The notes under the pieces: generated by a model
What the model was told of the DNA's origin: nothing
What the model saw: the letters and a program-made list of their open reading frames with translations, nothing else
Database searches by the model: none
In this document: piece after piece, positions 2,938 through 34,681 of the stretch
Numbering within the stretch: the stretch's first letter is position 1
How the letters are laid out: each line of letters starts with the position of its first letter
Translations under genes and position numbers: made by a program
NCBI GenBank assembly: GCA_044238605.1
Contig: JBIICY010000013.1
Span: 1 to 35,526, forward strand
Source: Patescibacteria group bacterium
Lineage (GTDB): Bacteria > Bacteroidota > Ignavibacteria > Kapaibacteriales > Kapaibacteriaceae
Length of the DNA stretch: 35,526 bases
Reading direction: 5' to 3'

Positions 2938-4602
2938 ATGGCAACAACAATTGGTTCGGCAGTAACCCACGATCTAAACTTTGAATCAAATGCCGATGCG
3001 AACAAGCAGACGTTTCGCATGATCGACGGCGTCTCGCAATCGGTTATGCTTGGCGGTGGCAAGAAGTCTATTGAGCGCCACAAGGCCAAGGGCAAGCTCA
3101 CGGCACGCGAGCGCATTGCGTTGCTTGTGGACGAAGACAGTGCGTTTCTCGAGGTCGGACTCCTTACCGCGCACGGCATGTATGAGCAAGAAGGGGGCTG
3201 CCCGTCCGCAGGTGTGGTTACGGGCATTGGCATCATCCACGGACGCGAGTGCATGATCGTAGCAAACGATGCTACGGTAAAGGCGGGCGCATGGTTTCCG
3301 ATGACGGCAAAGAAGAACATGCGCGCGCAAGAGATCGCGATGGAGAATCGGATTCCGATCATCTACCTTGTGGACTCCGCTGGGGTGTTTCTGCCGATGC
3401 AGGATGAGATCTTCCCCGACAAAGAACATTTCGGACGTCAGTTCCGCAACAACGCCATGATGAGCGCTATGGGCATTCCGCAGATTGCGGCCATCATGGG
3501 CCCGTGCGTTGCAGGCGGCGCATACCTGCCCATCATGTCAGACGAAGCAATCATCGTCAACGGCACCGGCAGCGTCTTCCTCGCAGGACCTGCCCTTGTA
3601 GAAGCTGCCATTGGAGAGAAGACAGGCATAGAGCCCCTTGGCGGAGCAACAATGCACAGCACCGTATCGGGCGTGATCGATTACAAGGTTGACTCAGACG
3701 AAGAAGCTCTCTCGACCATTCGCTCTCTCGTTGAGAAGTTCTCGCCTACACTTGGCAAGAAGGATCTCTTCTCGCGCGTAGAACCACGCGAGCCAGCGTT
3801 TGATCAAGAAGAGATCTACGGCATTATGCCATCGGATAGAGCAAAGCCCTACAACACACGTCAGATCATTGCACGCTTGGTCGACGGATCAGAATTCGAC
3901 GAATACAAGGCCGGGTTCGGTCAGACCATCATCTGCGGCTATGCCCGCATCGACGGCTGGAGCGTTGGCATCGTGGCCAACAACCGCGAGATCTCGAAGT
4001 CAGGCAAAGGCGAGATGCAGGTAGGGGGCGTGATCTACTCCGACTCTGCAGATAAAGCAGCACGCTTCATTCTGAACTGCAACCAGCGCGGAATTCCACT
4101 CGTGTTTCTGCAGGACGTAACAGGCTTCATGGTGGGCACACGCGCAGAGCAGGGCGGCATCATCAAAGACGGCGCAAAGCTTGTTAATGCCGTCGCCAAT
4201 TCTGTTGTACCAAAGTTTACGATCATCATCGGCAACTCGTATGGGGCTGGCAACTACGCTATGTGCGGCAAGGCCTACGATCCACGTCTGATCTATGCCT
4301 GGCCAACGGCGCAGATCGCTGTAATGGGCGGCGCGCAGGCAGCAAAGACGTTGTTGACGATTAAGATTGCCACGCTTGAGAAGCAGGGCGAAGTGTTAAC
4401 GCCCGAGAAGCAGGCGGCAATGCTCAAGGATATACAAGCCAAGTACGATGCAACCACAACGCCGGTCTATGCGGCGTCGAAGCTCTGGGTAGACGGCATC
4501 ATTGCTCCAACAGACACGCGCAACGTTATCTCGCGCGGCATTGCCGTGGCATCGCATCAGGGCTCGATCCCCGAGCTCAAGACAGGCGTATTCCAGGTAT
4601 AG
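2938..4602 (+). CDS. acyl-CoA carboxylase carboxyltransferase subunit (methylcrotonyl-/propionyl-CoA carboxylase beta-chain family)
   Basis: In-frame ATG at 2938 inside ORF 2689..4602 gives MATTIGSAVTHDLNFESNADANKQTFRMIDGVSQSV... Hallmark carboxyltransferase blocks are present: KLTARERIALLVDEDSAFLE, GVVTGIGIIHGRECMIVANDATVKAGAW, MGPCVAGGAYLP and GNSYGAGNYAM. Size is ~554 aa. Confidence 0.8.
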   Translation: MATTIGSAVTHDLNFESNADANKQTFRMIDGVSQSVMLGGGKKSIERHKAKGKLTARERIALLVDEDSAFLEVGLLTAHGMYEQEGGCPSAGVVTGIGIIHGRECMIVANDATVKAGAWFPMTAKKNMRAQEIAMENRIPIIYLVDSAGVFLPMQDEIFPDKEHFGRQFRNNAMMSAMGIPQIAAIMGPCVAGGAYLPIMSDEAIIVNGTGSVFLAGPALVEAAIGEKTGIEPLGGATMHSTVSGVIDYKVDSDEEALSTIRSLVEKFSPTLGKKDLFSRVEPREPAFDQEEIYGIMPSDRAKPYNTRQIIARLVDGSEFDEYKAGFGQTIICGYARIDGWSVGIVANNREISKSGKGEMQVGGVIYSDSADKAARFILNCNQRGIPLVFLQDVTGFMVGTRAEQGGIIKDGAKLVNAVANSVVPKFTIIIGNSYGAGNYAMCGKAYDPRLIYAWPTAQIAVMGGAQAAKTLLTIKIATLEKQGEVLTPEKQAAMLKDIQAKYDATTTPVYAASKLWVDGIIAPTDTRNVISRGIAVASHQGSIPELKTGVFQV

Positions 4603-4606
4603 CCCC

Positions 4607-7273
4607 ATGATTAGCGAGCTGCAAGAAACCATCGGGAGCGAGCGCGTTTCGACGAAGCTCACCGAGCGTCTTGCCTATGCTCACGACGCATCGTTCTATA
4701 GGCTTGTGCCTCAAGCTGTGGTGCGTCCAACCACCGTTGATCACATCAAGCAGATCCTGCAGTGGTGCACGCGGACGTCTACATCGTGCACCTTCCGCAC
4801 AGGAGGCACCAGCATATCGGGTCAGGCCGTAACAGACGGCATCATCGTCGACCTCTCACGCGACTGGCATCATGTGGCTATTGCTTCTGATGCGAGCAGC
4901 GTTACCATGCAGCCAGGGATCACGGGTGCTCGGGTGAATGCCATGCTTGCCCCGTACGGACGCAAGATTGGTCCTGACCCCGCATCGCTCATCGCTGCGA
5001 TGATCGGTGGCATTGTTGCAAACAACTCAAGCGGCATGTGCTGTGGCACGGCGCAGAACTCCTACCACACCCTTGATGGCATGACGTATCTGCTTGCCAA
5101 CGGCGTGATGATCGACACACGCAGTCCCGATGCCGATGCAACCCTGCGCGAGCATGCACCAGAGATCCATGCCGATATTGCGGCGTTGCGTGATGATGTC
5201 CGCAACGATGCAGACCTCGTTGCAACGATTCGCAGAAAGTACCGGATCAAGAACACGATCGGATATTCCCTCAATGCATTTCTCGACGAAGACCAGCCGG
5301 CGCGCATCATTGCAAAGCTGCTTGTGGGCAGCGAGGGTACGCTTGGGTTTATTGACGACGTAACGCTGCGCACGGTTGCTGATGCAGCGATAAAGCACAC
5401 AGCGTTCATCGTCTACGACACGCTCGACGAAGCATGCATTGATGTGTCGTATTGGCGCGATGCCGGAGCCGCAGCGATCGAGATCATGGACGACGCATCG
5501 CTGCGCTCGTTTGCACACCTGCCAACCACGCCAGATCAGTATCGCATTGATAAACCCGGCGCAGCGGCGTTGCTTGTGGAGTTTCACAACTGCGAGCCCC
5601 CTGCAGACCCTCAGCGCAAGGTTGAATGGTCAACCAACCCCACTGAGCAGCGCGCACTGTGGAAACTTCGCAAGGGGCTTATGCCAACTGTTGGCGCAAT
5701 GCGCAAGGCAGGGCAGAGCATGATCAACGAAGACGTGGCCGTGCCTGTTGAGCATTTAGCGTCGCTCGTAAAAGACGTCCAGCAAGCGTTTCTCGACTTC
5801 GGCTATCATGATGGCATCGTGTTTGGTCATGCCAAGGACGGCAACATCCACTTTATCATGAACCAGTCGTTTAACGAGCAGAGTGAGGTAGATAGATACT
5901 CAGCATTCATGGACCGCATAGTAACCATCGTTATCGATCGGTATCAGGGATCGCTCAAGGCAGAGCATGGCACTGGACGTAACATGGCGCCATTTGTGCA
6001 GCATGAATGGGGCAAAGGTGCCTATGCCGTGATGAAGCGCATCAAGGCACTGCTTGATCCGCACGACATCCTAAACCGTGGCGTGTTGATGAACGAAGAC
6101 CACAGCGTGCACACCTCCAACCTGAAGCCCGTGCCGGCCTTTGCAGGGGAGGAAGAGCACCAGACCAACTTGTGTATCGAGTGCGGGTTCTGTGAGCACG
6201 TATGTCCTACGCGGGGTCATTCCCTTACGCCACGTCAGCGCATTGTGCTACAGCGGGAAATGGTAATGTCACAGAGTGACGCGGAGCGCAAGCAGATCCA
6301 GCGCGAGTACGAGCGAGATGGGGCAGACACCTGCGCGGTTGACTCCTTCTGTTCGGCTGTGTGTCCTGTAGGCATCGACACAGGTGCCATGGTGAAACGT
6401 CAGCGCGCCCGCAAGCGCACATCACTGCGCATTCCTGCGGGCATCATTGCGCGTAACATGCATCACGTGCGAGCGATCATGCGTGGCATGTTTGCGCTTA
6501 ACGCCACGCGCATCGCAAAGGGAGGCAAGCTCCTGCTTGGGTCGCACGTGCCACCTGTGATGCGCGAGCAGACGCAGCACGCTCAGCCGGATATGCTGTA
6601 CGTACGCACATGTGTAAGCTCGTGGCAGAGCAGATCCAGTGGACCTTCGATGCAAGAGCAGATCATAAACCTTGCTACGAAAGCAGGCATCAAGCTGAAC
6701 GTCCTCTATGCAACTCGTGGGTGCTGTGGTCAGCCCCTTGCCTCGAATGGTCAGCCCGAAGCTGCCAATCAAACCATGCACATCATGCTTGCCGACATCG
6801 AGCACGCTCTTGGCGGACGCACCATCCCTGTATTTGTAGACACCTCAACATGTGCCAGCGCCCTCGTAGCAGCAGCCAAAGCAAGGGGCATGGAGATCAT
6901 CGACCAAGTAGGCTTTGCAGAGCGCGTCTTAGAGCGAACAGACATCACACCAACAGACACACCACTCGTTCTGCACCCAGGCTGCGGCAGCGCCAAACTT
7001 GGCACCAGTGAGCGCTTCGAAGCAGTAGCGCGTAGAATCTCGAACAACGTTATCATCCCACCTTCAGCCACCTGCTGCGGCATGGCCGGCTCTCATGGCC
7101 TGTTAAATCCAGACATCGTTGCAAGTGCACTCTCAGCAGAACGCAAAGAGGTCCACAAAGCATGTGGCAGCACCGCAGCCATCGGCATCTCCTGCAACCC
7201 CATGTGCGAAGCCGCGCTCAGCAATACAATTGGTATCGAGTACAAGGGGCTGGTGGAAGTGATTGCTCGGTAG
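4607..7273 (+). CDS. FAD-binding oxidase fused to 4Fe-4S and CCG domains (YdiJ/D-lactate or D-2-hydroxyacid dehydrogenase-like)
   Basis: ATG at 4607 (MISELQETIGSERV...) lies 4 nt after the upstream stop. The N-terminus has a PCMH-type FAD domain (RTGGTSISGQAVTDGIIVDLS), then FAD-oxidase C. Two ferredoxin-like Cys clusters follow (CIECGFCEHVCP, CAVDSFCSAVCPVGIDTG) and Cys-rich CCG-like repeats near the C-terminus (ATRGCCGQPL, PGCGSAK, ATCCGMAGSHG). The architecture is the same as E. coli YdiJ (from memory). Confidence 0.7.
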   Translation: MISELQETIGSERVSTKLTERLAYAHDASFYRLVPQAVVRPTTVDHIKQILQWCTRTSTSCTFRTGGTSISGQAVTDGIIVDLSRDWHHVAIASDASSVTMQPGITGARVNAMLAPYGRKIGPDPASLIAAMIGGIVANNSSGMCCGTAQNSYHTLDGMTYLLANGVMIDTRSPDADATLREHAPEIHADIAALRDDVRNDADLVATIRRKYRIKNTIGYSLNAFLDEDQPARIIAKLLVGSEGTLGFIDDVTLRTVADAAIKHTAFIVYDTLDEACIDVSYWRDAGAAAIEIMDDASLRSFAHLPTTPDQYRIDKPGAAALLVEFHNCEPPADPQRKVEWSTNPTEQRALWKLRKGLMPTVGAMRKAGQSMINEDVAVPVEHLASLVKDVQQAFLDFGYHDGIVFGHAKDGNIHFIMNQSFNEQSEVDRYSAFMDRIVTIVIDRYQGSLKAEHGTGRNMAPFVQHEWGKGAYAVMKRIKALLDPHDILNRGVLMNEDHSVHTSNLKPVPAFAGEEEHQTNLCIECGFCEHVCPTRGHSLTPRQRIVLQREMVMSQSDAERKQIQREYERDGADTCAVDSFCSAVCPVGIDTGAMVKRQRARKRTSLRIPAGIIARNMHHVRAIMRGMFALNATRIAKGGKLLLGSHVPPVMREQTQHAQPDMLYVRTCVSSWQSRSSGPSMQEQIINLATKAGIKLNVLYATRGCCGQPLASNGQPEAANQTMHIMLADIEHALGGRTIPVFVDTSTCASALVAAAKARGMEIIDQVGFAERVLERTDITPTDTPLVLHPGCGSAKLGTSERFEAVARRISNNVIIPPSATCCGMAGSHGLLNPDIVASALSAERKEVHKACGSTAAIGISCNPMCEAALSNTIGIEYKGLVEVIAR

Positions 7274-7296
7274 GGGCGAGCCGGCGGCTCGCCCGC
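7266..7296 (+). repeat. stop-codon-embedded REP-like GC hairpin (CGG TAG GGGCGAGCC ggc GGCTCGCCC)
   Basis: Perfect 9-bp stem GGGCGAGCC/GGCTCGCCC with a 3-nt loop, starting on the TAG stop of the oxidoreductase. The same element recurs at 28868-28933 (two copies) and 30081-30112. Confidence 0.7.
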
Positions 7297-7328
7297 ATGA
7301 TATGCGAATGCGCAGTATGGATTACATG

Positions 7329-7427
7329 TTACGTTTCATGTCGGTGATAACACAGCATCTGCATTGATTCTTTTGTGAAGTAGTTGTACTTCAATTCACG
7401 AAAGGCTTCACTAAATGCAATCCTCAT
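7329..7427 (-). pseudogene. 32-codon remnant of a RelE/ParE-type toxin 5' end (MRIAFSEAFRELKYNYFTKESMQMLCYHRHET*)
   Basis: Lies within repeat copy A. The first ~25 codons are collinear with the start of the 11274..11816(-) ORF (MRIAFSKAFRESMFDYFTQESLQML...). It then diverges and terminates, running antisense into the 3' flank of the upstream gene. Confidence 0.35.
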
Positions 7428-7508
7428 AGAAACAGAATACAGTCGTGAACAGAAAGGTATATCTACGTTCACTGTGTATTGTGACAACCATTACGTCACA
7501 ATCGGGGG
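7354..7508. repeat. copy A of a ~155-bp direct repeat (partner at 11557..11710)
   Basis: Direct comparison with 11557-11710. A 55-bp core is identical (aatacagtcgtgaacagaaaggtatatctacgttcactgtgtattgtgacaacca). The flanks are ~85% identical. An 11-nt cassette differs at almost every base (gttgtacttca here vs atcaaacattg in copy B). Confidence 0.9.
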
Positions 7509-7617
7509 TGTCAGAGTGTAAAAAATAAAATATACTATTTGACCATCTCCCTCGTCATACATGCCAATTATATAGCGCTATAGTAAGACTGAATCCCAAC
7601 ATATTATCGGAGTATGT

Positions 7618-9522
7618 ATGTCTGCAACGTTACTGATCGCGTTGGCGATCGTTCTGCTACTTGTTATTGGTATGCGATTCGTACTACGAATCTTTGGAAT
7701 GGTGTCTATACCTGAAGACCGAATAGGTCTTGTCACTAAAAAGTTTGGTGGACCCCGCCTCGATGGCGATCGAATCATTGCTATAAATGATGAATCAGGC
7801 TTTCAGGCCTATACACTTGGGCCTGGACTCCACTGGGGATTCTGGCCATGGCAGTATTCAGTAGAGCGTAAAGAGTTCACTGTTATCCCGGAAGGTCATA
7901 TCGGTCTCGTGAATGCGAAGGACGGTAGCATCCCCGAGACGGGACGAATTCTTGGGCGCAGGGTAGAGTGCAATGATTACCAGGATGCAGTTGGATTTCT
8001 TCGCAATGATGGACAAAAGGGACGTCAGTCAGCGTTTATCCCGTCGGGTGTCTATCGTATCAACACCTATCTCTTCGATGTAACGGTTGTTCCGCAAGTA
8101 CACATCCAGGATAACATGCTTGGTGTTATCACGGCCTTGGACGGGGCTCCTCTCGAAGATGGTCAGATAGCCGGTAAGCTTGTTCCTAATGAGGTACACA
8201 ACAACTTCCAAGACTTTGATGCCTTTCTTAATGCTCACGGTAATCGTGGTCTGCAACAGCAGGTTATTCTCGCGGGTACATATAATCTCAACCCATGGGC
8301 AGTTACAGTTGAAGAAGTGAAGATGACCGAGATCACGATTGGCCATGTTGGTGTTGTGATTTCGTTCTTTGGTAAAGAGGGAGTTGATGTTTCTGGAGAT
8401 GGATTCCGTCACGGCAACCTTGTATCGAAAGGTCAGCGTGGGGTGCTCGCAGAGCCCCTTAACCCCGGACTGTATCCAATCAACCCATATACAACGCGTG
8501 TGGAGGTTGTGCCGACAACCAACCTCGTGCTCAACTGGGCGCTTGCGCGCACAGAGGCGCACAACCTGGACAAGAATCTCTCAACGATCACGGTCCGCTC
8601 AAAAGATGGATTCCAGTTCAATATCGATGTCTCACAGATCATTCACATACCACTTATCGATGCGCCTAAGGTAATCGCACGATTTGGGAACATCCATAAT
8701 CTGGTTTCTCAGGTACTAGAGCCAACGATCGGAAACTACTTTAGGAACTCGGCGCAGGACTCTGATGCCATCGACTTCCTCAGTAGCCGACAGCAACGTC
8801 AGGAAGAAGCGAAGACACATATATCTCGTGTGCTTGACGAATACAATGTGCAGGCGGTCGACACACTTATTGGTGACATCGTACCACCGGTTGAGCTGAT
8901 GAAGACACTCACAGATCGAAAGATTGCCCAAGAGCAGGAGAAGACCTTCGACGCCCAGCGTCTGGCCCAGGAGAAGCGTCAGGCACTTGCAAAACAGACT
9001 GCCGTTGCAGACATGCAGGCAGAGGTTGTAAAGGCAGAGCAGAGTGTAGCAATCGCCGAACAGGTGGCCGATGCATCCGTTAGAAAAGCAAAAGGCGAAT
9101 CACAATCGATCAAAATCGCTGCAGAGGCGAACTCAGAGGCTACAAGGCTTAAGGCAACAGGCGATGCGCAATCTGTAAAGATCTCTGCTGAGGCTGAAGC
9201 AGAATCCGTGCGACTGCGCGCTCAGGCAGAATCCACCCGCATCGCATTGACTGGTCAGGCCGAGTCGGAGTCTATCTTGGCAAAGGGCAAGGCCGTCGCA
9301 GAATCCTATCGTCTATCGGTCGAAGCTATGGGACCAGAGAACTTCACTGCGATGAAGGTCACCGAAGAGATCGGAAAGAACGGTATCAAGCTCATACCCG
9401 AGCTTGTTATCAACGGGGGAGGCAAGGAAGGGGGCGGCTCTACACCGGTAGACGGACTCTTGGCAATGCAGCTACTGCAGATGATGCAGGGATCGAAAGC
9501 AACGAAGAAACCTGCTGCATAA
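7618..9522 (+). CDS. flotillin-family SPFH/band-7 membrane protein
   Basis: N-terminal TM (LLIALAIVLLLVIGMRFVL). An SPFH-like domain follows. The long C-terminal coiled coil has Ala/Glu-rich flotillin repeats (AEANSEATRLKATGDAQSVKISAEAEAESVRLRAQAESTRIALTGQAESESILAKGKAVAE) and a Gly-rich tail. Size (634 aa) and layout match YqiK/FloT-type flotillins. Confidence 0.75.
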   Translation: MSATLLIALAIVLLLVIGMRFVLRIFGMVSIPEDRIGLVTKKFGGPRLDGDRIIAINDESGFQAYTLGPGLHWGFWPWQYSVERKEFTVIPEGHIGLVNAKDGSIPETGRILGRRVECNDYQDAVGFLRNDGQKGRQSAFIPSGVYRINTYLFDVTVVPQVHIQDNMLGVITALDGAPLEDGQIAGKLVPNEVHNNFQDFDAFLNAHGNRGLQQQVILAGTYNLNPWAVTVEEVKMTEITIGHVGVVISFFGKEGVDVSGDGFRHGNLVSKGQRGVLAEPLNPGLYPINPYTTRVEVVPTTNLVLNWALARTEAHNLDKNLSTITVRSKDGFQFNIDVSQIIHIPLIDAPKVIARFGNIHNLVSQVLEPTIGNYFRNSAQDSDAIDFLSSRQQRQEEAKTHISRVLDEYNVQAVDTLIGDIVPPVELMKTLTDRKIAQEQEKTFDAQRLAQEKRQALAKQTAVADMQAEVVKAEQSVAIAEQVADASVRKAKGESQSIKIAAEANSEATRLKATGDAQSVKISAEAEAESVRLRAQAESTRIALTGQAESESILAKGKAVAESYRLSVEAMGPENFTAMKVTEEIGKNGIKLIPELVINGGGKEGGGSTPVDGLLAMQLLQMMQGSKATKKPAA

Positions 9523-9547
9523 TAGACGATAACACGATGGTTCAACG

Positions 9548-9585
9548 CACCCTGGAGAGGTATGTATCTCCGGGGTGTGTTGTAT
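9548..9585 (+). terminator. possible terminator after flotillin gene
   Basis: caccctggaga / tctccggggtg forms an 11-bp stem with 1 mismatch and an 8-nt loop. It is followed by a T-rich tgttgtat stretch, which is a weak U-tract. Confidence 0.35.
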
Positions 9586-9637
9586 CAAGGTTGATAAAAT
9601 CTGAAGATGTCGGATATTCGCCCCTTACGAGGATTGT

Positions 9638-11041
9638 ATGAATAATGCGACGAATAACAAGGCGGTACTGTGGCGATTAGCAATACCTGTTATCATCTTG
9701 ATACTGTCTACGATTTGCTTCGAAGCAGGTGTTGTAGTGCAGCACAGACCCGACATTGCATCAGAGGGGCTGTTTATGCACGTACTCTACGCGATGAGTC
9801 TGTTCAAAGTCAATGGCATCAACCTTGGCGTGCCGGTATCTGGTCCAATCTGGGCAATTGATCTTCTCTACGTTATGTATTTCGCTGCTCCTGCCGTTTC
9901 AATCAGCGCAATTCTTGAGGCCGTGTTTCGTGTTGCACGGCTTAAGCTACGTTGGTTTCTACTGCGTGGTGGCCATGCGGTAGTGCTTGGTGCGGGACGT
10001 GCAACGTCGGACCTGCCGGCTATTCTCGATGCTGAAGTTGAGTCAAGGGGCTGGTTTGGACTTGTCCGCAAATCGGTTCCAATTGTTATCGCAGACAAAT
10101 CAGAGGATGCGCTGCTTCGCAATTCAACGAGTATGCTCAAGATGCATCTTGATGCAACCGATCCAGCAATTGTTGACACATTAAACATGCGTCGTGCTAG
10201 GGTAGTCATGCTACTCACCGATGATGATCAGGCGAACATCGACGTGTATTTCCGCTTGCGTGAACAACTATCGTCAGTGCCGGAGGAGAAGCGTCCTGTG
10301 GTCTTCATTCGTGTACGCGACATGGACCTGATCCGTGTGCTGCGTTCATACAATACCTCCCCGAAGACGCGGTTTTTTAACGTCCACATCGAAGGCGTCC
10401 GCTCGCTCTTTGCTCTCGATTCATCGATCACAGCAAGCGAATGGCTTGTGCACGCCCGCGAGACAAACGAAGCCCTGTCAAAGAACTGGGATGCTGTTAC
10501 GCGCATCAAGGACATGCAGCCTCAGCGCATCGTAATGGTTGGGTTTGGACGCTTTGGCCAGCACCTGCTCGCCGAAATGATGTTGAATAATGATGGACAT
10601 ATGACGAAGCACCTTGAGTCGCTGGCAATCATCAGTCCAGACGTCTTTCATGGATGGGCTCACTTTGAGCGTCTACTGCTGTGCAACATCACCAATAGCA
10701 GTGCTCTACCAAACCCTGAACTGCTCTCAGGCACTCATAGCGATGTAGGGCTGCTGCATTCGCTCGCTCAGGAGTCCGCTAACCGCAACACACTCTTTAT
10801 CATTGGCACCGATGATACGCCTGCAAACATTCAAGCAGCATCGGTTCTCCAGCGCTTCTGTGCGGCACACTCATCACAACATCCGTCGCGCTCCACTATC
10901 ATGGTGCGCACAAACATGTTCAGCATGGCACACGAGCGTCTGCTCCATTCAGGTACTTCAGAGAATGTAGACTACGTTCTCCTGCCAACGTATCATATCC
11001 TCGGTACGTACTTCAGTCGTCGTATCAGAGAAGCGCGGTAG
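9638..11041 (+). CDS. MthK-like two-TM ion-channel homologue with tandem RCK/KTN (TrkA-N) domains and a degenerate selectivity filter
   Basis: Outer helix LWRLAIPVIILILSTICF. The pore region is FKVNGINLGVP where K+ channels carry TVGYG. Inner helix IWAIDLLYVMYFAAPAVSISAIL. Two Rossmann GxGxxG motifs follow (HAVVLGAGRATSDL and IVMVGFGRFGQHLL). Confidence 0.55.
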   Translation: MNNATNNKAVLWRLAIPVIILILSTICFEAGVVVQHRPDIASEGLFMHVLYAMSLFKVNGINLGVPVSGPIWAIDLLYVMYFAAPAVSISAILEAVFRVARLKLRWFLLRGGHAVVLGAGRATSDLPAILDAEVESRGWFGLVRKSVPIVIADKSEDALLRNSTSMLKMHLDATDPAIVDTLNMRRARVVMLLTDDDQANIDVYFRLREQLSSVPEEKRPVVFIRVRDMDLIRVLRSYNTSPKTRFFNVHIEGVRSLFALDSSITASEWLVHARETNEALSKNWDAVTRIKDMQPQRIVMVGFGRFGQHLLAEMMLNNDGHMTKHLESLAIISPDVFHGWAHFERLLLCNITNSSALPNPELLSGTHSDVGLLHSLAQESANRNTLFIIGTDDTPANIQAASVLQRFCAAHSSQHPSRSTIMVRTNMFSMAHERLLHSGTSENVDYVLLPTYHILGTYFSRRIREAR

Positions 11042-11105
11042 AGAGCAGCGAGCAGCGAATAGAAAGCAGCGAGCAGCGAGTAGCAAACAGCGAGTAGCGA
11101 GTACC
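11042..11105. repeat. AGCGAGY heptamer satellite (9 units) beginning immediately after stop codon
   Basis: agagcagcgagcagcgaatagaaagcagcgagcagcgagtagcaaacagcgagtagcgagtaccgagt, followed by the hairpin gtttacttcgtaaac. Confidence 0.85.
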
Positions 11106-11112
11106 GAGTGGT

Positions 11113-11298
11113 TTACTTCGTAAACAATGATGCTACGATCTGGCGGATCTCGTCTTGGGGATGCTCTTCGTTCGTTACTTCGAACGTAGTGAGTTGCGAC
11201 TTTCCTTGGCGTACATCCTTCATCTCTTGAAGAACTGCAACGAATCTGTCAAAGAAGTCGTCGGAAGCATCTTCTAGTTGTTCCGTGGGTCGTGCCAT
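11113..11298 (-). CDS. 61-aa acidic protein in the antitoxin position downstream of a RelE/ParE-type toxin; candidate non-canonical antitoxin
   Basis: MARPTEQLEDASDDFFDRFVAVLQEMKDVRQGKSQLTTFEVTNEEHPQDEIRQIVASLFTK. Overlaps the toxin ORF by 25 nt. I see no HTH or RHH motif. The AGCGAGY satellite begins 8 nt after its stop. Confidence 0.4.
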   Translation of the reverse strand: MARPTEQLEDASDDFFDRFVAVLQEMKDVRQGKSQLTTFEVTNEEHPQDEIRQIVASLFTK

Positions 11299-11630
11299 AG
11301 GTCTTCATCCTCTATATCGATTAGTGATAGGTGAATTAGATACGCACGTTGCTGTGGCAATAGATCTGGCTGGTCTCTTTTCCGGTAAGCAAGATACAAC
11401 ACAAGAAGCCGCTTTCTTCGGTCATAAGCGTATAGTATTCGTAGGCCTGATCGTGCACCAGTGTGATGTAGTGCATCAGGTGCGCGAATCTTGCGAATGC
11501 CACCAAGTCCTCGCATAAGTGCGCCAGCCTCTGGCGCATGGACAAGTCGTTCTAGGAGCATCTGTAGCGATTCTTGTGTGAAGTAATCAAACATTGATTC
11601 ACGAAACGCTTTGCTAAATGCAATCCTCAT
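11274..11630 (-). CDS. RelE/ParE-superfamily toxin (HigB2/Gp49-like)
   Basis: C-terminal block GLRILYAYDRRKRLLVLYLAYRKRDQPDLLP fits the RelE/ParE/Gp49 core (YRIlY..d.....v.il...hRk). The longest ORF runs to 11816, but ATGs at 11630 (MRIAFSK...) or 11594 (MFDYFTQ...) give a family-typical 106-118 aa. The 5' end lies in repeat copy B. Confidence 0.55.
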   Translation of the reverse strand: MRIAFSKAFRESMFDYFTQESLQMLLERLVHAPEAGALMRGLGGIRKIRAPDALHHTGARSGLRILYAYDRRKRLLVLYLAYRKRDQPDLLPQQRAYLIHLSLIDIEDEDLWHDPRNN

Positions 11631-11710
11631 GGAAACATAATACAGTCGTGAACAGAAAGGTATATCTACGTTCACTGTGTATTGTGACAACCAAAACGTG
11701 ACAATTGGGG
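11557..11710. repeat. copy B of the ~155-bp direct repeat (partner 7354..7508)
   Basis: See copy A. Read on the minus strand, the core contains TTGTCA-16nt-TAGATA, a sigma70-like -35/-10 pointing into the RelE/ParE-like gene. An imperfect inverted repeat ACAGTcgTGAAC...GTTCACTGT is also present. The two copies bracket 7509-11556. Confidence 0.9.
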
Positions 11711-11854
11711 AGGGCGACTCAGTCCTCGTAATGCTTCTGCTTTCGCAGGATGACCTTCGCAACAACGACGAGTTGCTCGCTATATTTCTATGTGAGGCAT
11801 GATTACAATGAGACAATCAATAGTTTACTAATAGTAAACACACTATATTGCACA

Positions 11855-12166
11855 GTGTTTAACATCATTGCAAGAAAAACCATCCTTGTATACGCGCGGA
11901 GGTATCCCAAGGCATCGAATGCCTTGTTCGCGTGGTACTATGAGATTGTCAATGCAGACTACAAGAACTGTAACCAGTTAAAGGCAGACCATCCATCTGC
12001 GAGTATTGTAGGAGATGACCGCGTGGTGTTCAACATTATGGGTAACAAATACAGACTCGTTGTGCGTATTGTGTTTGCCTACCGAGCAGTGCAAATCAAA
12101 TGGTTCGGCACCCACAAGGAATACAATGAGATCGATGTTCAAACTATCGACCCAAGGAGAAACTAG
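11855..12166 (+). CDS. higB: HigB-family type II toxin (mRNA interferase)
   Basis: KADHPSASIVGDDRVVFNIMGNKYRLVVRIVFAYRAVQIKWFGTHKEYNEIDVQTI matches the HigB signature (..NRVVFNIkGNkYRLIv.i.y....vyIrfiGTHaEYDkID). A GTG at 11855 gives the family-typical ~104 aa. The ORF-track ATG at 11750 would add 35 non-conserved residues. Confidence 0.75.
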   Translation: MFNIIARKTILVYARRYPKASNALFAWYYEIVNADYKNCNQLKADHPSASIVGDDRVVFNIMGNKYRLVVRIVFAYRAVQIKWFGTHKEYNEIDVQTIDPRRN

Positions 12167-12168
12167 TC

Positions 12169-12525
12169 ATGGAGCTACGAGTCATCAAGTCCGCTAGGCA
12201 GTACAACGAGTATCTCTCGTGGGTAGACGAACAATTCGACAAGAACGTAAAGCCAACATCGCCCGCAGGACGCAAACTCGATGTGGCTCTGGCATTGATC
12301 AAGCTGTATGAAGATGAGCACTATGCCATCCCGCACCCCGATCCAATCGAGGCTATCAAGGCTCGAATGCAGGAAATGGGGCTCCGCAATAAGGACCTTG
12401 TTGGCATCATCGGTAGTAAGAGTTATATCTCACTCGTGCTTAACGGGCACAAACCACTTACTCTTGATCTGGCAAAGGCATTCCATAAGGTACTGGGCAT
12501 ACCAGCAGACGTGCTGCTGAAGTGA
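12169..12525 (+). CDS. higA: HigA-family antitoxin (C-terminal HTH)
   Basis: Starts 2 nt after the higB stop. PHPDPIEAIKARMQEMGLRNKDLVGIIGSKSYISLVLNGHKPLTLDLAKAFHKVLGIPADVLL matches the HigA pattern (PDPIEAIKFRMEQ.G..QKDLA...G.KS.VSEILNKKR.LTL.MIRKL...L.IP.EVL) from memory. Confidence 0.8.
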   Translation: MELRVIKSARQYNEYLSWVDEQFDKNVKPTSPAGRKLDVALALIKLYEDEHYAIPHPDPIEAIKARMQEMGLRNKDLVGIIGSKSYISLVLNGHKPLTLDLAKAFHKVLGIPADVLLK

Positions 12526-12631
12526 AGTTCGTTCGCGAGTGTGCCGAGATACCAGCTACTCGCTGTTCGCTACTCGCGGCGTTTTGACCGGTGTTACACG
12601 AATTTTTACGAGATTTACCAAGGTACGTGTC

Positions 12632-12943
12632 ATGAATGGACCATTTACGATGCTCGATCACAACGTGCAAGAAAGATTCAATCTGGAAGAGGAGGGTTCT
12701 CTGATGAATGAGCTCCTATCAGATGATATCGATCGACAGCGCATTGCTGCTGCGTTTGTGCGTGCTTCATACGATGCTCGAGCTCGAGCTCGAGAGCATG
12801 GTACCAAGCTTGTGTACATGATTGATGGCAAGGTACAGCTTCTAGATCCTGATTCTCCACTGCTACTGGATCTGTCACCATTGGTGCCAATAGTTAAACG
12901 GCTTTTTCCGCTGCCGCCTGAAATGGAGCCTAAAGGGTTCTAG
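12632..12943 (+). CDS. small hypothetical protein, paralogue of 13931..14221, with internally duplicated C-terminal motif
   Basis: MNGPFTMLDHNVQERFNLEEEGSLMNELLSDDIDRQRIAAAFVRASYDARARAREHGTKLVYMIDGKVQLLDPDSP... It shares the DIDRQR.AAA.VRA....R..AR..GT.LVY..DG.V....PDSP core with the 96-aa protein downstream. The ATG at 12632 is in frame within ORF 12539..12943. Confidence 0.5.
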   Translation: MNGPFTMLDHNVQERFNLEEEGSLMNELLSDDIDRQRIAAAFVRASYDARARAREHGTKLVYMIDGKVQLLDPDSPLLLDLSPLVPIVKRLFPLPPEMEPKGF

Positions 12944-12964
12944 CCAGAGAGCAAGCACACCTGC

Positions 12965-13033
12965 ATGGCACAACGCCCGCTCACCGATCTTACCGAACTT
13001 GTCGCAATCGCAGATCGGCTGTTTCCGCGGTAA
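12965..13033 (+). pseudogene. in-frame orphan C-terminal module (MAQRPLTDLTELVAIADRLFPR*) of the paralogue family
   Basis: Same reading frame as 12632..12943, with a single TAG between them. The sequence matches the C-terminus of the second paralogue (ELPDLTELLALADQLFPRNS). Confidence 0.4.
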
Positions 13034-13063
13034 TCCGTCTTCTGTGATCCGCAATCCAAACAT

Positions 13064-13567
13064 TTATTCGCTTTCGCGGGGTACCCCATCCCTATTGACC
13101 CAAGGAGTAACTAGTCTTGGAGCCTTCAAGATTTCTAAAGTCGAAGTATCAAGTTTTCCATCGTAGTATTTTCTCACTGCATCTTCAAAACACAAATAGT
13201 CGGTGCTATTCTGAAAGTTACTGTTTGTCATCACTACCGCGTAGAATAGTGTCATCGATGAATGAAACTTCAGATCATCAGGAAACCCAAATATTTCCTC
13301 GGCAGTTCTTCCTTCAACGTTGTACGCTAAGATCTTAGTTAACTCCAGAAGTCTCATTGAAAGCAATTCATCCCTTAAATAGTGTTCTGCCTCTTCGAGG
13401 TTAGCAATCTCGTATTTTTTGGCGGTTTCAGATTTTCCTAAGCCAGCTATTTGTGGGAAAACAAACCACATCCAATGGCTCGTTTTTTTACCAACTTTCA
13501 TTTCTGCCAGAACTTCTTGGTAGCAACTATCTTGAGCAGTCTTGAATCTGTTTAAATCGTATTTCAT
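13064..13567 (-). CDS. DUF1810-family protein, AT-rich (likely horizontally acquired)
   Basis: MKYDLNRFKTAQDSCYQEVLAEMKVGKKTSHWMWFVFPQIAGLGKSETAKKYEIANLEEAEHYL matches the DUF1810 N-terminal signature (L.RF..AQ...Y..AL.E...G.K.SHWMWF.FPQ..GLG.S) from memory. GC is visibly much lower than the flanks. Confidence 0.6.
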   Translation of the reverse strand: MKYDLNRFKTAQDSCYQEVLAEMKVGKKTSHWMWFVFPQIAGLGKSETAKKYEIANLEEAEHYLRDELLSMRLLELTKILAYNVEGRTAEEIFGFPDDLKFHSSMTLFYAVVMTNSNFQNSTDYLCFEDAVRKYYDGKLDTSTLEILKAPRLVTPWVNRDGVPRESE

Positions 13568-13661
13568 TTTCTGCGCTGTTCAGAAATGCTTGTATTGGTT
13601 TCAGGCTTTGCGTTTGAGTCGATTCGATTGATAGACCAGCCCAATGTTTAGAAAATAGTGA

Positions 13662-13934
13662 TTGTGCTGCTTCGATCTCGCAAAGGTGGGGCGCATGGCT
13701 ATTGAACGCACAAAACAGCTGATTGAAAACCGTGACTCATTTGCAATCGAGACCACAATGTCTGGAACGGTGCTTTCTCAAACACTAGGGCAGGCTGCTG
13801 ATGCTGGGTATTATATTGCAATCAAACTCCTACGAGTAGAGACAGTAGATGTGTCGTCCAAACGCGTTGCTAGACGCGTCCAACAAGGTGGACACGATAT
13901 TCCAATGGCAGATCAGATGAGGGGGGGGCAATGA
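13662..13934 (+). pseudogene. zeta-toxin-family (P-loop kinase) fragment lacking the Walker-A N-terminus
   Basis: AIERTKQLIENRDSFAIETTMSGTVLSQTLGQAADAGYYIAIKLLRVETVDVSSKRVARRVQQGGHDIP resembles the C-terminal two-thirds of zeta-toxin/AAA kinase domains (..FafETTLSG......L.....GY.v.l.yv.l...el...RV..RV..GGH.IPe). A stop sits immediately upstream in frame, the start is TTG, there is no P-loop, and a G8 tract sits at the 3' end. Confidence 0.5.
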
Positions 13935-14221
13935 GTGGACCATCTACGACGCCGAATCCCAACAACCGCAGATTCTCCTCAGTGGAAGGGGAGGACTCGA
14001 TCCTGAATGATCTACTTTCAGGTGACATTGATCGCCAGCGCATGGCCGCAGCTATTGTCCGTGCTTATGCGCATGCCCGTGAGCAGGCTCGCGCATACGG
14101 AACTACACTGGTCTACTCGAAGGATGGGGTTGTAACAGAATACCATCCCGACTCACCAGAGTTACCAGACCTTACAGAACTGCTCGCACTCGCTGATCAG
14201 CTCTTCCCGCGTAACTCGTGA
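13931..14221 (+). CDS. small hypothetical protein, paralogue of 12632..12943
   Basis: MSGPSTTPNPNNRRFSSVEGEDSILNDLLSGDIDRQRMAAAIVRAYAHAREQARAYGTTLVYSKDGVVTEYHPDSPELPDLTELLALADQLFPRNS. Its ATG overlaps the zeta-fragment stop (caATGa). Confidence 0.5.
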   Translation: MSGPSTTPNPNNRRFSSVEGEDSILNDLLSGDIDRQRMAAAIVRAYAHAREQARAYGTTLVYSKDGVVTEYHPDSPELPDLTELLALADQLFPRNS

Positions 14222-14247
14222 TTGGTAATTGTTCTTTCGCTGTTTCG

Positions 14248-14265
14248 GGCACGATGTATCGTGCC
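14248..14265. promoter_or_regulatory. palindrome GGCACGAT-gt-ATCGTGCC between convergent genes (a second copy lies at 30194-30211)
   Basis: Perfect 8-bp arms. The identical arms recur at 30194..30211 with an 'at' spacer. It is a bidirectional terminator hairpin or a dimeric regulator site. Confidence 0.4.
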
Positions 14266-14272
14266 GCTATGG

Positions 14273-14312
14273 CCACTCGGCACTCGCTACTCGGCACTCG
14301 CTACTCGGTACT
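14273..14312. repeat. heptamer satellite ACTCGSY x5.5 (reverse-complement orientation of AGCGAGY)
   Basis: ccactcggcactcgctactcggcactcgctactcggtactc, ending at the stop codon of the GT2 gene. Confidence 0.8.
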
Positions 14313-15410
14313 CTAAAACGTCTGCCCCTTCCATTGCACTCGCTTGCGCATTGCCAGAATTGGCAGGATAAGCTCAAGAAGCAACAGGATGATGAGCGAG
14401 GGGGCGATTGCTGGTATGGAAGACCAGCGGCGAAGACGCATAACTGAGAGGCCGATCAGCACGCCGTCTCCAAGTGCACGAAGAGCGAGATAGGTGAGTG
14501 TCCAACTTGCTGACTGCGTCACGATGGAGAGCACAAGGGCCGCCCAGTAGGTAACACTGGTAATCACAAAGATGGTGGCGCGCCATCCAAGCTGTGTGCC
14601 GCCCCTTACCCAGCGCTGCTTCTGATGAAGGTACTCCATCAGCGTTGTGCAGGGAAGGGTCTCAACGGCGCTGTCGGCACTGCAGATATAGGATACGCTA
14701 TGTCCAGCTCGCACCATTGCCTGCAGGAGTGCAAGGTCTTCGGTGATGCTAAAACTTACTACGTTATATCCTCCTAGTTCGCGAAATGCAGCGGCATCGA
14801 TGGCAAGATTGTTGCCAAAGCATCCGATGGGGATGCCGTTTGTGAGCGATCCCTGTGCCATGCTGTGCGTGTAGAGCCACTCTACGTCCTGCAAGACTCC
14901 AAACGCTGAGGAATGCTCAATGGTGGTAAATCCGCAAACCATCTTGACGCGCTCGTTGTTGAACGGGGCAAGCATGGTGTGCACCCAGTCGGGGTCTACT
15001 ACGCAATCTGCATCGGTAAAAAGAAGTACATCTCCCGATGCACGGTCAACGCCTGCTTGAAGCGCTCCCGGCTTGCCGCGCAGATTCTCTCGTGCTTCCG
15101 ACTCCGTTCGGTGCACAGTCTTGATCACCGACCACGATGCAGCGGCCAGTTCAATAATGCTGCCGGTTGCATCTGTGCTGCGATCGTTCACAATGATGAT
15201 CTCCAGCAGGTGCTCGGGATAGGTTATCGTGCGCAGAGATGCAATACACCTGTGCAGGGTAGAGGCTTCGTTACGGGCTGGGATGATGATCGAGACGCGC
15301 CGCTGTGGAACGTTGTTCTGCTTGCGGATGGATGCCCGCAGCTGTCCGCTTAGAAAGTACACCAAGCGAAGGCTGTAGATGACGGCCGAGATGGTCAGGA
15401 CAAGTTCCAT
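14313..15410 (-). CDS. family 2 glycosyltransferase (membrane, processive type)
   Basis: The N-terminal GT-A domain carries the DxD region (VSIIIPARNEASTLHRCIASL...IIVNDRSTDATG...LLFTDADCVVDPDW) and QKQRWVRG (the QxxRW motif). Multiple C-terminal TM helices follow. Confidence 0.8.
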   Translation of the reverse strand: MELVLTISAVIYSLRLVYFLSGQLRASIRKQNNVPQRRVSIIIPARNEASTLHRCIASLRTITYPEHLLEIIIVNDRSTDATGSIIELAAASWSVIKTVHRTESEARENLRGKPGALQAGVDRASGDVLLFTDADCVVDPDWVHTMLAPFNNERVKMVCGFTTIEHSSAFGVLQDVEWLYTHSMAQGSLTNGIPIGCFGNNLAIDAAAFRELGGYNVVSFSITEDLALLQAMVRAGHSVSYICSADSAVETLPCTTLMEYLHQKQRWVRGGTQLGWRATIFVITSVTYWAALVLSIVTQSASWTLTYLALRALGDGVLIGLSVMRLRRWSSIPAIAPSLIILLLLELILPILAMRKRVQWKGQTF

Positions 15411-18525: not shown

Positions 18526-18608
18526 GATAAAGCAGCGAGCAGCGAGTAGCGAACAGCGAGCAGCGAACAATTAGACGTACTCGCTGCTCGCTGTTCGCTG
18601 CTCGCTAC
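18526..18608. terminator. 83-bp perfect palindrome built from AGCGAGY heptamers filling the gap between convergent stop codons (bidirectional terminator candidate)
   Basis: ataaagcagcgagcagcgagtagcgaacagcgagcagcgaacaattagacgtactcgctgctcgctgttcgctgctcgctactc. The left arm is AGCGAGY units, the right arm is their reverse complement, and the loop is aattagacgta. It abuts the stop at 18525 on the left and the stop at 18609 on the right. Confidence 0.7.
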
Positions 18609-19850
18609 TCATATCAGCATTCCCGCTACACACGCGGTTAGCAGATTTGCTAGGGCCCCAATGCACATGGCTTTGAAGCCAAAGCGGGCTACTTCGGCGC
18701 GGCGTTCTGGGGCCATCATGCCGTAGCCGCCGATTTGGATGCCGATGGACATGATGTTGGCAAAGCCGCACAGGGCAATAGTAGCAAGGCGCACAGTTCG
18801 GTCTGAAAGAGCCCCTTGTCCAACAAGGGTTGCAAGCTTGTCGTAGGCGATGAACTCTGTGAGTGAGATCTTGGTGCCTAAAAGAGATGCGAATGTGTGG
18901 GCCTCGTTGGATGGTATGCCAACGAGCCACGAGAACGGCAGAAAGATGTAGCCAAGGATCTGCTCGATGGATGTGCCAATACCCATCATCAGGAGTGCGT
19001 CCATGAAGGCAACGATGGCCTTAAAGGCAATGAGTACTACGATTACGTTTACGGCAAGCTTTACGCCATCAAATGCACCGCGCGCTATGGCATCGAGCAC
19101 GTTGCCGGCAGGCAATACGGGATCGAGGTTGGTAACCTCTTCACGTGTAAGTGCATCTTCTGGTCTGTCTGGCTCTGCGATCTTGGCAAGGGCCAGCGCC
19201 GCGGGTGCGGCAAGGATACTGGCGATCATCAGGTCGGTGGCCTGAATGCCCCTTGCCACGTAGACACCCATGGTAGAGCCGGCAATGGTTGCAAAGCCAC
19301 CTACCATCATGGCAAAGAGCTCAGAAGGGGCTATGCGGGGTATGTAGTGTCTCACGAGCAGCGGAGACTCTGTCTGACCCAAAAAGATCTCGCCAACAGC
19401 GTTGATGGACTCAATGGGAGATGTCTTCATTGTGCGTTCAAGAATGCGCGCTGCGATCTTCACGAACCGCTGCATGATGCCGTAATGATACAGCACGGCC
19501 ATGCATGCAGAGAAGAAGACAATAACAGAAGTTATCGTGAGGGCAAACTGAAAGCCCACTGCGGCAACGCCTTTTGCGCGTGGAAGATCGCCAAAGAGAA
19601 ATGCTGCACCCTCATTGGCAAAACCCAGAAACCATGTGATGCCATCGCCCATCCACTGGAAGAAGGCAATGCCCGGTGGAAACACCATTACAACAACAGC
19701 CAGTAGAAGCTGCAGGACAATGCCCCAGAGAACGGTTCTCCACGGGATGGCGCTTCGAGAAGATGACCAGATCCAAGCGATGGCAAGGATCACGAGTATA
19801 CCAAGGGCCGACTGAAGCTGGGGCATGGACGTTCCGCTATCGTTCTGCAT
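18609..19850 (-). CDS. nupC: NupC/CNT-family concentrative nucleoside transporter
   Basis: A multi-TM protein with the conserved CNT blocks GFANEGAAFLFG, FQFALTITSVIVFFSACMAVLYHYGIMQ, KTSPIESINAVGEIFLGQTESPLLVRHYI and ELFAMMVGGFATIAGS. An alternative start at 19826 (MPQLQ...) would remove the 14-nt overlap with dnaE. Confidence 0.8.
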   Translation of the reverse strand: MQNDSGTSMPQLQSALGILVILAIAWIWSSSRSAIPWRTVLWGIVLQLLLAVVVMVFPPGIAFFQWMGDGITWFLGFANEGAAFLFGDLPRAKGVAAVGFQFALTITSVIVFFSACMAVLYHYGIMQRFVKIAARILERTMKTSPIESINAVGEIFLGQTESPLLVRHYIPRIAPSELFAMMVGGFATIAGSTMGVYVARGIQATDLMIASILAAPAALALAKIAEPDRPEDALTREEVTNLDPVLPAGNVLDAIARGAFDGVKLAVNVIVVLIAFKAIVAFMDALLMMGIGTSIEQILGYIFLPFSWLVGIPSNEAHTFASLLGTKISLTEFIAYDKLATLVGQGALSDRTVRLATIALCGFANIMSIGIQIGGYGMMAPERRAEVARFGFKAMCIGALANLLTACVAGMLI

Positions 19851-22800: not shown

Positions 22801-23289
22801 TATCGCATTGCGCCGTGCCGTTTCTTCGTCACCGGCAAGCATTGGCGCATTGATGGGTCCGGCTAGACATGCCGACGTCGCGATGAGCCCCTCATGGTGT
22901 TCACGCAACAGGTCCATGTCGATACGGGGCTTGTAGTAAAACCCATGCGTATGGCCAATGGAGGTAAGCTTTACAAGGTTCTTGTATCCCGTTTCGTTCT
23001 TTGCCAGCAGCACCAGATGGTAGTAGTTCCGCTTCTTGCCAGCATCAACAACCTTCTCGCGGTCGGTGTGCTTCTTTACCGCGATGTAGACCTCGCAACC
23101 AATGATGGGCTTAATGCCCGACTTCTTGGCCTTTTTGTAAAACTCAAAGCAGCCGAACATCACGCCGTGATCCGTGATCGCCAGCGCAGATTGTCCGTCG
23201 GCCTTGGCCGCATCGATCAACGTCTGCGGACTCGCCGCAGCATCGAGCAATGAGAAGTGTGTGTGGTTGTGAAGGTGGACGAAGCTCAT
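19837..23289 (-). CDS. dnaE: DNA polymerase III alpha subunit
   Basis: 1150 aa. N-terminal PHP domain MSFVHLHNHTHFSLLDAAASPQTLIDAAKADGQSALAITDHGVMFG. The polymerase core is GPGRGSAAGSLIAYALRITDIDPLKFDLLFERFLNPDRVSMPDIDVDF. The OB-fold region lies C-terminally. Confidence 0.95.
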   Translation of the reverse strand: MSFVHLHNHTHFSLLDAAASPQTLIDAAKADGQSALAITDHGVMFGCFEFYKKAKKSGIKPIIGCEVYIAVKKHTDREKVVDAGKKRNYYHLVLLAKNETGYKNLVKLTSIGHTHGFYYKPRIDMDLLREHHEGLIATSACLAGPINAPMLAGDEETARRNAITLKEIFGDDFYIELQDHGLPEDKHVLEFAPRLAKELGIKIVVSNDTHYVKKDDAVAHNVLLHIQKDASFDRSQFDVKKDLRYRVPEMYMKTQKQMKDLFKAFPEGIESTVEIAEKVDLKIPTDLQLPQFPIPPESDATTLEDYLEELTMKGLEERYPVMTSEVLDRASFELQVIKRMGYAGYFLIVADFIRAARQMGVRVGPGRGSAAGSLIAYALRITDIDPLKFDLLFERFLNPDRVSMPDIDVDFSDDKRSRVIEYVKEKYGADSVAQIITFGTLSSRAVLKDVGRVLGIELSAITQITDKIPVIMGKVHTIAEAMELPELRWIKTTDDHRIKDLISYAQVLEGFARNSSLHAAGVVIAPGPISDFVPVYKTPNTEAATQYNMKDLEEAGLLKMDFLGLRTLSIIDQTLEQIKRNHGIDVDVDTIDFDDPKTYELFSRGYTQAVFQFESDPMQKALRELKPTVLEDLIAMNALYRPGPMDNIPDFIDRKHGRKPVEYLHPLMEPILNKTYGVIVYQEQVMQLVQTLAGFTLAQSDVMRRAMGKKDEKSMAEQRVKFIEGAKSNANIEEALASEIFDLIQKFASYGFNKSHSAAYSYLAFQTAWLKTHYPAEFLAANMTAELNDQAKIVALIDEAKRVNITVLPPDINRSMATFVAEGSSIYFGLAGIKGVGITAVESIVEARKDSPFTSIFDFAARVDKKVVNKRVLEALVCSGAFDSLRNGHRAQLFSVIDTAIHYASQVQDDALSAMGGGLFGDAEIERPKEPSLPVLEPWPERDRLRKEKEVLSFYVSGHPLQEYAMAVQSFSTINLARIDADMNGKGARICGLISDVRTRLDKRENTIAFVKVEQYQGSVEVIFWSDKYKQFAELIKPDTVVVVIGKCEVSGESIKITADDVLTLEQAEKKLVRGYVVCIRPDEHTDEQLKSLKQRCNTSDAQDQLSFVVMHPEGKRLYTTMSKIKYSQETTKFLCSTFGDANVLVDAER

Positions 23290-28933: not shown

Positions 28934-28940
28934 CGTTGGG

Positions 28941-33008: not shown

Positions 33009-33009
33009 G

Positions 33010-34678: not shown

Positions 34679-34681
34679 GCA

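Follow-up and report, generated by a model that had tools for sequence, protein, structure and literature searches.

The question raised by this locus is what a pair of direct repeats is doing on either side of a 4.2-kb segment that carries a flotillin gene and a channel-like gene. The window (the whole 35,526-nucleotide stretch of DNA analysed here) comes from a Candidatus Kapaibacterium of freshwater origin (Lake Mendota) whose closest GTDB representative, L027, is 91% identical in DNA; related contigs and their lineages are referred to below by L numbers. A first interpretation, made from the letters of the window without database searches (the sequence-only reading), had proposed the attachment boundaries of a small islet, a duplicated toxin–antitoxin (TA) operator with swapped half-sites, or a leader conserved in its fold. 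The comparison with related contigs favoured a plainer answer: very probably, the repeats are the 5′ end of a higB2-like operon, present once intact (copy B) and once as a truncated leftover (copy A) in a rearranged island, as a result of ordinary genome decay. The main value of this answer is negative, in that an apparent hypervariable, palindromic, att-like cassette becomes the duplicated and truncated beginning of a toxin gene, with an allelic coding polymorphism.

Two copies of a toxin gene start

A repeat search of the window gave direct repeats at 7354–7507 and 11557–11710, 154 nt long, 87% identical and 4203 bp apart, and a direct count over 7354–7510 and 11557–11713 gave 22 differences in 157 nt (identity 86–87%). 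The search and the count confirmed both the repeat pair and the identical core of 55 bp that the sequence-only reading had described; this core (7436–7490, identical to 11639–11693) occurs exactly twice in the window, with 0 occurrences expected by chance. Under random placement of the 22 differences, a difference-free run of 55 bases has a probability of ~7e-4 and the packing of seven differences into the 11 nt at 7383–7393 one of ~7e-3. The two-copy arrangement is not an assembly artefact, since it is reproduced in independent contigs from other samples: L038, L042 and L043 span both copies, and L025 and L039 span copy A. The L042 lineage has an L012-like leader in copy B, which shortens the core that its two copies have in common. 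The core contains −35/−10-like hexamers and an imperfect inverted repeat. The hexamers of the minus-strand promoter proposed earlier (TTGTCA-N16-TAGATA) are present, but they match the consensus weakly and were not called by a promoter scan, which upstream of the toxin gene gave no convincing Bacteroidota-type or sigma-70 match; we nevertheless infer a promoter upstream of that gene.

Copy B (11557–11713, minus strand) comprises an upstream control region, a leader of ~25 nt before the ATG (11630–11628) and the first 25 codons of a gene for a 118-aa HigB-2-like toxin of the RelE/ParE superfamily (11274–11630, minus strand). In a phmmer search against the PDB, toxin residues 7–99 aligned with the HigB-2 entries 5ja8 and 9tv9 with E values of 4.5e-9 to 8.5e-9, and the 118-aa sequence had no Pfam match at E <= 0.05. 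The HigB-2 match (E = 5e-9) bears out the earlier assignment of copy B to the upstream region and first ~25 codons of a RelE/ParE-like toxin gene. The 3′ end of the toxin gene is overlapped by 25 nt by an open reading frame (ORF) for an acidic 61-aa protein, a putative antitoxin (11113–11298, minus strand), and an overlapping ORF of 61–65 aa also follows the toxin gene in L014, L016 and L021, whose toxin homologues are 57–73% identical. This partner showed no match in Pfam, NCBIfam, PDB or PADLOC and no detectable helix-turn-helix (HTH) or other DNA-binding domain, and operator binding by it is not supported. As judged from sequence, 11274–11630 and 11113–11298 form a toxin-first, HigB-2-like two-gene module, which is divergent from a neighbouring higBA pair.

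The closest characterized system is HigB-2/HigA-2 of Vibrio cholerae (PDB 5ja8, 5jaa; PMC5416850), which resembles the present module in the aligned toxin residues, in the toxin-first order with a small downstream partner and in its chromosomal position in a variable region together with other TA pairs. It differs in that HigA-2 has an operator-binding C-terminal HTH, whereas the partner here is short, acidic and without a detectable one, and in that the toxin here matches no Pfam model and belongs to a rare family, with only 8 clusters among 5.8 billion protein sequences. In V. cholerae, neutralisation of the toxin requires no more of HigA2 than a short, disordered peptide at its N terminus, and the HTH domain is separate (PMC5416850); a minimal 61-aa neutraliser without an HTH is therefore plausible. 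One side product of the analysis is this rare family of HigB-2-like toxins, paired with a 61-aa protein in which no DNA-binding domain was detected. In some annotation pipelines, a 67–69-aa ORF in another frame (window 11336–11545, minus strand) and a 42-aa C-terminal fragment are called instead of the 118-aa toxin. The DNA under these calls is the same as in the window in L011, L038 and L039 and almost the same in L042–L049, so they were rejected as real truncations and regarded as gene-caller alternatives; public annotations accordingly under-report the toxin.

Copy A (7354–7510, minus strand) is the same 5′ end of a second operon copy, truncated: its toxin homology, as delimited by tblastn, covers residues 1–25 only and ends after codon 25. 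The earlier description of a 32-codon remnant holds, the ORF at 7329–7427 (minus strand, ATG at 7427, stop at 7329) consisting of the 25 homologous codons MRIAFSEAFRELKYNYFTKESMQML followed by 7 unrelated ones, and no gene is called at this position in related contigs. Taken literally, the proposal of a duplicated TA 5′ end was thus correct.

The palindromic block and the decay of copy A

The 11-nt block that had attracted attention as almost completely substituted yet palindromic in both copies is indeed palindromic in both, but 7 of its 11 bases differ and it is coding, corresponding to codons 12–15 of the toxin gene rather than to promoter or leader. Specifically, copy B (block at 11586–11597, minus strand) reads GAA TCA ATG TTT GAT TAC TTC, or E-S-M-F-D-Y-F (the SMFD allele), and copy A (block at 7383–7394, minus strand) reads GAA TTG AAG TAC AAC TAC TTC, or E-L-K-Y-N-Y-F (the LKYN allele); on the coding strand the palindromes are AATCAA-tgt-TTGATT and TGAAGTA-caac-TACTTCA, respectively. 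These codons lie in the N-terminal helix of the toxin. The copy-A-type block (GAAGTAGTTGTACTTCAA, ELKYNYF) was found base for base in the higBA-adjacent toxin gene of L012 and L013 (P0008, P0143), the copy-B-type block occupies the higBA-adjacent locus in all window-like strains, and in L042 the SMFD block follows a leader of the L012 type. By sequence comparison the block is thus an allelic coding polymorphism that recombines in the population. Two old haplotypes, SMFD and LKYN, would circulate and recombine with different leader haplotypes, and copy A would have frozen LKYN. Operator half-site swapping, as proposed earlier, was not borne out: the block is coding, its two forms are alleles of one gene, the partner lacks a detectable DNA-binding domain, and the second difference between the copies (below) is a base loss confined to copy A. 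Two further origins of the block were considered and rejected, namely inversion between GTGAA and TTCAC, as the reverse complement of one allele is not the other, and a compensated frameshift, as the frame-shifted sequences do not match.

Upstream of the gene, an alignment showed a motif, TTGTCACGTT, ~65–75 nt before the ATG that is conserved upstream of 6 intact family members and lies at 11695–11704 in copy B. Within the upstream region TGTCAC is invariant in 6/6 intact members; copy A alone reads TGTGAC (7497) and also has TT instead of AA beside it. The second difference noted previously, described as the conversion of an inverted into a direct repeat, does exist, but it comes down to one G/C change and two nearby changes, with a conserved base lost in copy A. 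In the coding part, the nonsynonymous changes K7E, Q19K and L22M are specific to copy A; between intact alleles (window copy B vs L012), only 3 differences were found outside the block, all of them synonymous. The loss of the motif base and the three nonsynonymous changes found in copy A alone indicate that this copy is under relaxed constraint. A second conserved patch, CACAnnGAAyG, was observed downstream of TTGTCACGTT; both are kept across toxins only 57% identical (window 11695–11704, L012, L014, L015 and two loci of L021) and are candidate promoter or regulator sites of this rare family.

Rearrangement of the island and competing explanations

The repeats lie in a hypervariable island of lower GC content (7265–14312; GC 0.44–0.53 vs ~0.55 in the flanks) that extends between two conserved neighbours, an oxidoreductase gene (ending at 7273) and a glycosyltransferase gene (14313–15410), and holds four or more TA-like modules. 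The island measures 7.0 kb in the window, 5.9 kb with different content in L027 and 810 bp in L031, a species ~72% identical in DNA. The sequences of L002, L004 and L027 part from that of the window at 7264/7265. In L002 and L004 the oxidoreductase sequence ...GAAGTGAT runs into a heptamer array and a hairpin, then into the stop codon of the 61-aa gene, followed by the complete operon and higBA, so that the window sequence from 7265 to ~11043, with the flotillin and channel-like genes, is absent. In L027 the oxidoreductase gene is followed by a heptamer array and then by what is left of the channel-like gene, its final 42 codons (97.6% aa identity), with 7266–10915 missing. The boundaries of these indels lie away from the repeats, and the 4.2-kb segment very probably did not integrate or excise at them. 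The position of the operon beside the oxidoreductase gene appears to be old, because L031 has a partner-gene remnant (residues 35–61, 63% identical) directly after its oxidoreductase gene, ahead of a mazEF-like pair. In L014, where the toxin is 73% identical to that of the window, a complete operon stands head-to-head with a 5′-truncated channel-like gene, the product of which begins at the position corresponding to residue 234; this is the arrangement that would be expected of the ancestor of copy A. Truncation of the toxin gene also recurs, since in L012 the same gene is cut after codon 68 and adjoins an IS3-type insertion sequence (IS) remnant with orfA (region 3600–3800).

These arrangements suggest a course of events in which two operon copies once bracketed the flotillin and channel-like genes, the left copy head-to-head with them; the repeats would be in direct orientation around the 4.2-kb segment because of this bracketing. 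In the window lineage, illegitimate recombination at 7353/7354 would have removed the 3′ part of the left copy together with its partner gene, and an 89-nt piece with a hairpin resembling repetitive extragenic palindromic (REP) elements would have taken the place of that 3′ part. L002 and L004 would have lost the cargo by recombination between operon copies or between heptamer arrays, and in the L014 lineage the flotillin gene and one half of the channel-like gene would have been lost by deletion. On this account the place of copy A was formerly occupied by a whole second operon; this, like the order of events, we infer from the arrangements in relatives. In genomic islands and superintegrons, duplication of TA loci is common, as is their truncation by IS elements, and relics of them persist. 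The present locus is like such decayed loci in having a truncated toxin 5′ end near an intact paralogue in a hypervariable, lower-GC island, and in the IS3-type remnant that truncates the same gene in L012; it differs from them in that the relic retains an intact 55-bp control core, invariant in three lineages, and borders cargo genes while pointing the same way as the intact copy.

Several observations weigh against truncation and decay as the whole explanation. Among contigs of the same species, none was found in which an entire operon occupies the place of copy A, and the intact 55-bp core could still be an active promoter. The palindromes are not fully explained either: stems of >= 6 bp occur in 1.6% and stems of >= 7 bp in 0.6% of 24-nt windows in the background, giving a nominal chance of ~1e-4 (1.6% x 0.6%) for palindromes in both alleles. 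Lastly, copy A is identical in the window, L025/L038 and L042/L043 lineages, the flanks of which differ by 4–9%, and this invariance could mean selection. In L025/L038, the identical tract extends over 7146–7650 (0/505 nt) and includes 128 nt of oxidoreductase coding sequence; it points to a recombination tract rather than selection, because the synonymous oxidoreductase sites are unchanged as well. In L042, 0 differences in the 157 nt of copy A stand beside 4 in the adjoining 89-nt piece, and difference-free tracts of 200–800 nt are frequent in this comparison of mosaic lineages. Selection on copy A was therefore considered not to be decided by the 0/505- and 0/157-nt identities, similar tracts being frequent and the first covering synonymous sites. 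Copy A is best regarded as functionally neutral now, though it may still fire as a promoter.

The best-placed alternative concerns how the cargo arrived. In a Campbell-type integration, circular or transferred DNA carrying the operon with the flotillin and channel-like genes would have recombined by homology with a resident operon, and the left copy would have been truncated later; the repeats would then mark entry of the cargo through homologous, not site-specific, recombination. This possibility, which we hold tentatively, fits the data equally well, differs from the preferred account only in the order of events and largely overlaps with it. It agrees with the apparently ancestral resident operon beside the oxidoreductase gene (L002, L004, L031), with the operon standing head-to-head with the channel-like gene in another lineage (L014) and with the difference in block haplotype between copies A and B, as expected if copy A came from a donor. 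The operon also moves by recombination: in L007 and L008 it is nucleotide-identical to the window over ~620–660 nt (11061–11679/11724), both flanks differing by ~10%, and this identical tract has its boundary where the repeat ends on the right. The pattern suggests that the operon allele is a module recently spread across lineages by recombination, and a TA module that is nucleotide-identical across ~10%-diverged flanks is itself a side product of the analysis. Import is further hinted at by flotillin, the identity of which drops from 90–99% to 67–70% without intermediates. On the other side, neither a circular junction nor a full-length left copy was seen, an extra truncation step is required, and the 97.6% identical remnant in L027 makes the channel-like gene an old resident of the island.

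It is unlikely that copy A is a maintained orphan promoter or operator, coupling the flotillin and channel-like genes to TA regulation through a minus-strand RNA, a 32-aa peptide or repressor titration, or a decoy for the toxin mRNA leader. Such a role would suit the intact hexamers and inverted repeat of the core, the absence of differences in copy A in three lineages next to the 4 in the adjoining piece of L042, and the REP-like hairpin at 7275–7295, which could terminate a transcript. It is at odds with the mutation, in copy A alone, of the otherwise invariant upstream motif, with the nonsynonymous changes peculiar to its coding part and with the partner's lack of a detectable DNA-binding domain; in addition, the promoter scan did not call the site, Rfam gave no match, and comparable identity tracts are common in these recombining lineages. 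A bolder combination, in which identical TA modules serve as portable homology arms that swap cargo between Kapaibacterium lineages and copy A is a live orphan promoter, operator or decoy leader that makes the cargo follow the state of the TA operon, is quite unlikely; if it were true, the invariance of copy A in three lineages would reflect selection.

That the palindromic block is an RNA hairpin or DNA site selected for its fold, or a quasi-palindromic hot spot of template switching, is very unlikely. Both alleles do form perfect stems of >= 6 bp, and the left arm of copy A, TGAAGTA, pairs without mismatch with TACTTCA, the conserved codons for Tyr-Phe-Thr, as template switching would produce, but the changed loop bases are then unaccounted for and no intermediate allele is known. 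In the distant homologues L014, L015 and L021 no stem of >= 5 bp is present at codons 11–17, so the hairpin is absent from the same position. The copy-B palindrome is broken by a synonymous TCA>TCG change (11595T>C) in L001, L009 and L042–L049 (at least 10 contigs) and does not form part of the minimum-free-energy fold of its own leader. Leader folds, which differ between the copies in their minimum-free-energy structures, were no more stable than those of shuffled sequences (z = -0.76 and -0.23), no Rfam family matched, and the codon-wise conservative replacements (F/Y, D/N) fit ordinary protein divergence. With these results the fold-conserving leader of the sequence-only reading finds no support.

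The remaining suggestion, that the repeats are attL and attR of a small islet excising site-specifically, is extremely improbable. Direct orientation, an identical core (here of 55 bp) and a lower GC content of the DNA in between are shared with the attL/attR repeats of integrative islands. However, the ORFs between the repeats are those of flotillin, the RCK-domain protein, the 61-aa partner and the toxin, Pfam and NCBIfam searches revealed no integrase, recombinase or transposase gene in or beside the segment, and tRNA genes are absent as well. The repeat is the 5′ end of a gene, and homology of ~80% continues to the left and right of its core, which is not the case for att arms. The islet test across relatives placed the boundaries at ~7265 and ~11043 (L002, L004, which retain the complete operon) or at ~7265 and 10916 (L027) and not at the repeats, and 14/14 contigs with the core showed only the two parental contexts and no circle or empty-site junction (in a small sampling of short-read assemblies). 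The viral contigs searched contained neither core nor toxin, and a phage or viral origin was rejected on this ground.

Genes and repetitive sequences in and around the island

The segment between the repeats contains an SPFH/Band-7 flotillin gene of the YqiK-like type (7618–9522, plus strand; Pfam PF01145, E = 4e-27), which is widespread, with homologues 66–70% identical, and a gene for a TrkA_N/RCK membrane protein (9638–11041, plus strand; Pfam PF02254, E = 2e-9). The latter had been read as an MthK-like channel, and beyond the RCK part this did not stand: TrkA_N is its sole match, and no pore domain (Ion_trans_2), GYG motif or solved relative was found, so that "channel-like" is used here with the pore unsupported. 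None of the four proteins (flotillin, channel-like protein, toxin and partner) had a defence-system match in PADLOC. In a comparison with L040/L041, the flotillin was 89.5% identical to its L040 homologue and the adjoining RCK-domain protein only 50.5%. The flotillin and RCK-domain genes of one operon have very different divergence rates; the L040 pair adjoins a PrsW protease gene and is without the TA operon.

The 89-nt piece that joins the oxidoreductase gene to copy A (7265–7353) matches nothing elsewhere apart from its REP-like hairpin (7275–7295), which recurs at 28872–28935 and in other Ignavibacteria loci. Related GC-rich REP-like hairpins are found at 28943–29646, where a 178-bp unit is repeated four times in tandem with 93% matching, and also at 28872–28935 and 34680–34830. 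On the other side of the cargo, between the channel-like gene and the partner gene, lies a tandem array of the heptamer AGCGAGY (11038–11109) that varies in length between strains and is a junction hot spot; similar arrays were found at the deletion junctions of L002, L004 and L027.

Heptanucleotide arrays (AGCGAGY, TAGGGAC, GTAACCA and others) are present at many gene ends and vary in copy number between strains. In the window they were located at 260–407, 11038–11109, 12555–12577, 14274–14313, 18531–18610, 23289–23369, 30421–30499, 32929–33018 and 33263–33428, and the pattern AGCGAGTAGCGAG, with <= 2 mismatches allowed, gave 38 matches vs ~1 expected. Some arrays are translated, as at the C-terminus of the oxidoreductase in L027 and L002 and the N-terminus of the ORF at 33209–34678. 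Cyanobacterial genomes contain heptamer arrays known as short tandemly repeated repetitive (STRR) sequences. The arrays described here are like these in being intergenic tandem arrays of heptanucleotides scattered in the genome, and differ in phylum (Kapaibacterium), in their units and in coinciding with rearrangement junctions. A further side product of the analysis is that heptamer arrays mark rearrangement junctions in uncultured freshwater Kapaibacterium.

Further along the island, two small ORFs (12539–12943 and 13931–14221) are paralogues with 51% identity across 93 aa. Pfam and NCBIfam gave no match to either at the thresholds used; the second has only a marginal PADLOC match (E = 0.0012) and directly follows a zeta-toxin-like fragment (13662–13934; Pfam E = 0.006). 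Their products may be antitoxin-like partners of decayed zeta-type modules. The end of the window (35400–35526) resembles the left end of an IS3-family element (start of orfA, MGNDNRGRRYDDEFRAAAVA), and the first 86 nt of this IS3-like element are 100% identical to the contig end of L012 (11348–11433).

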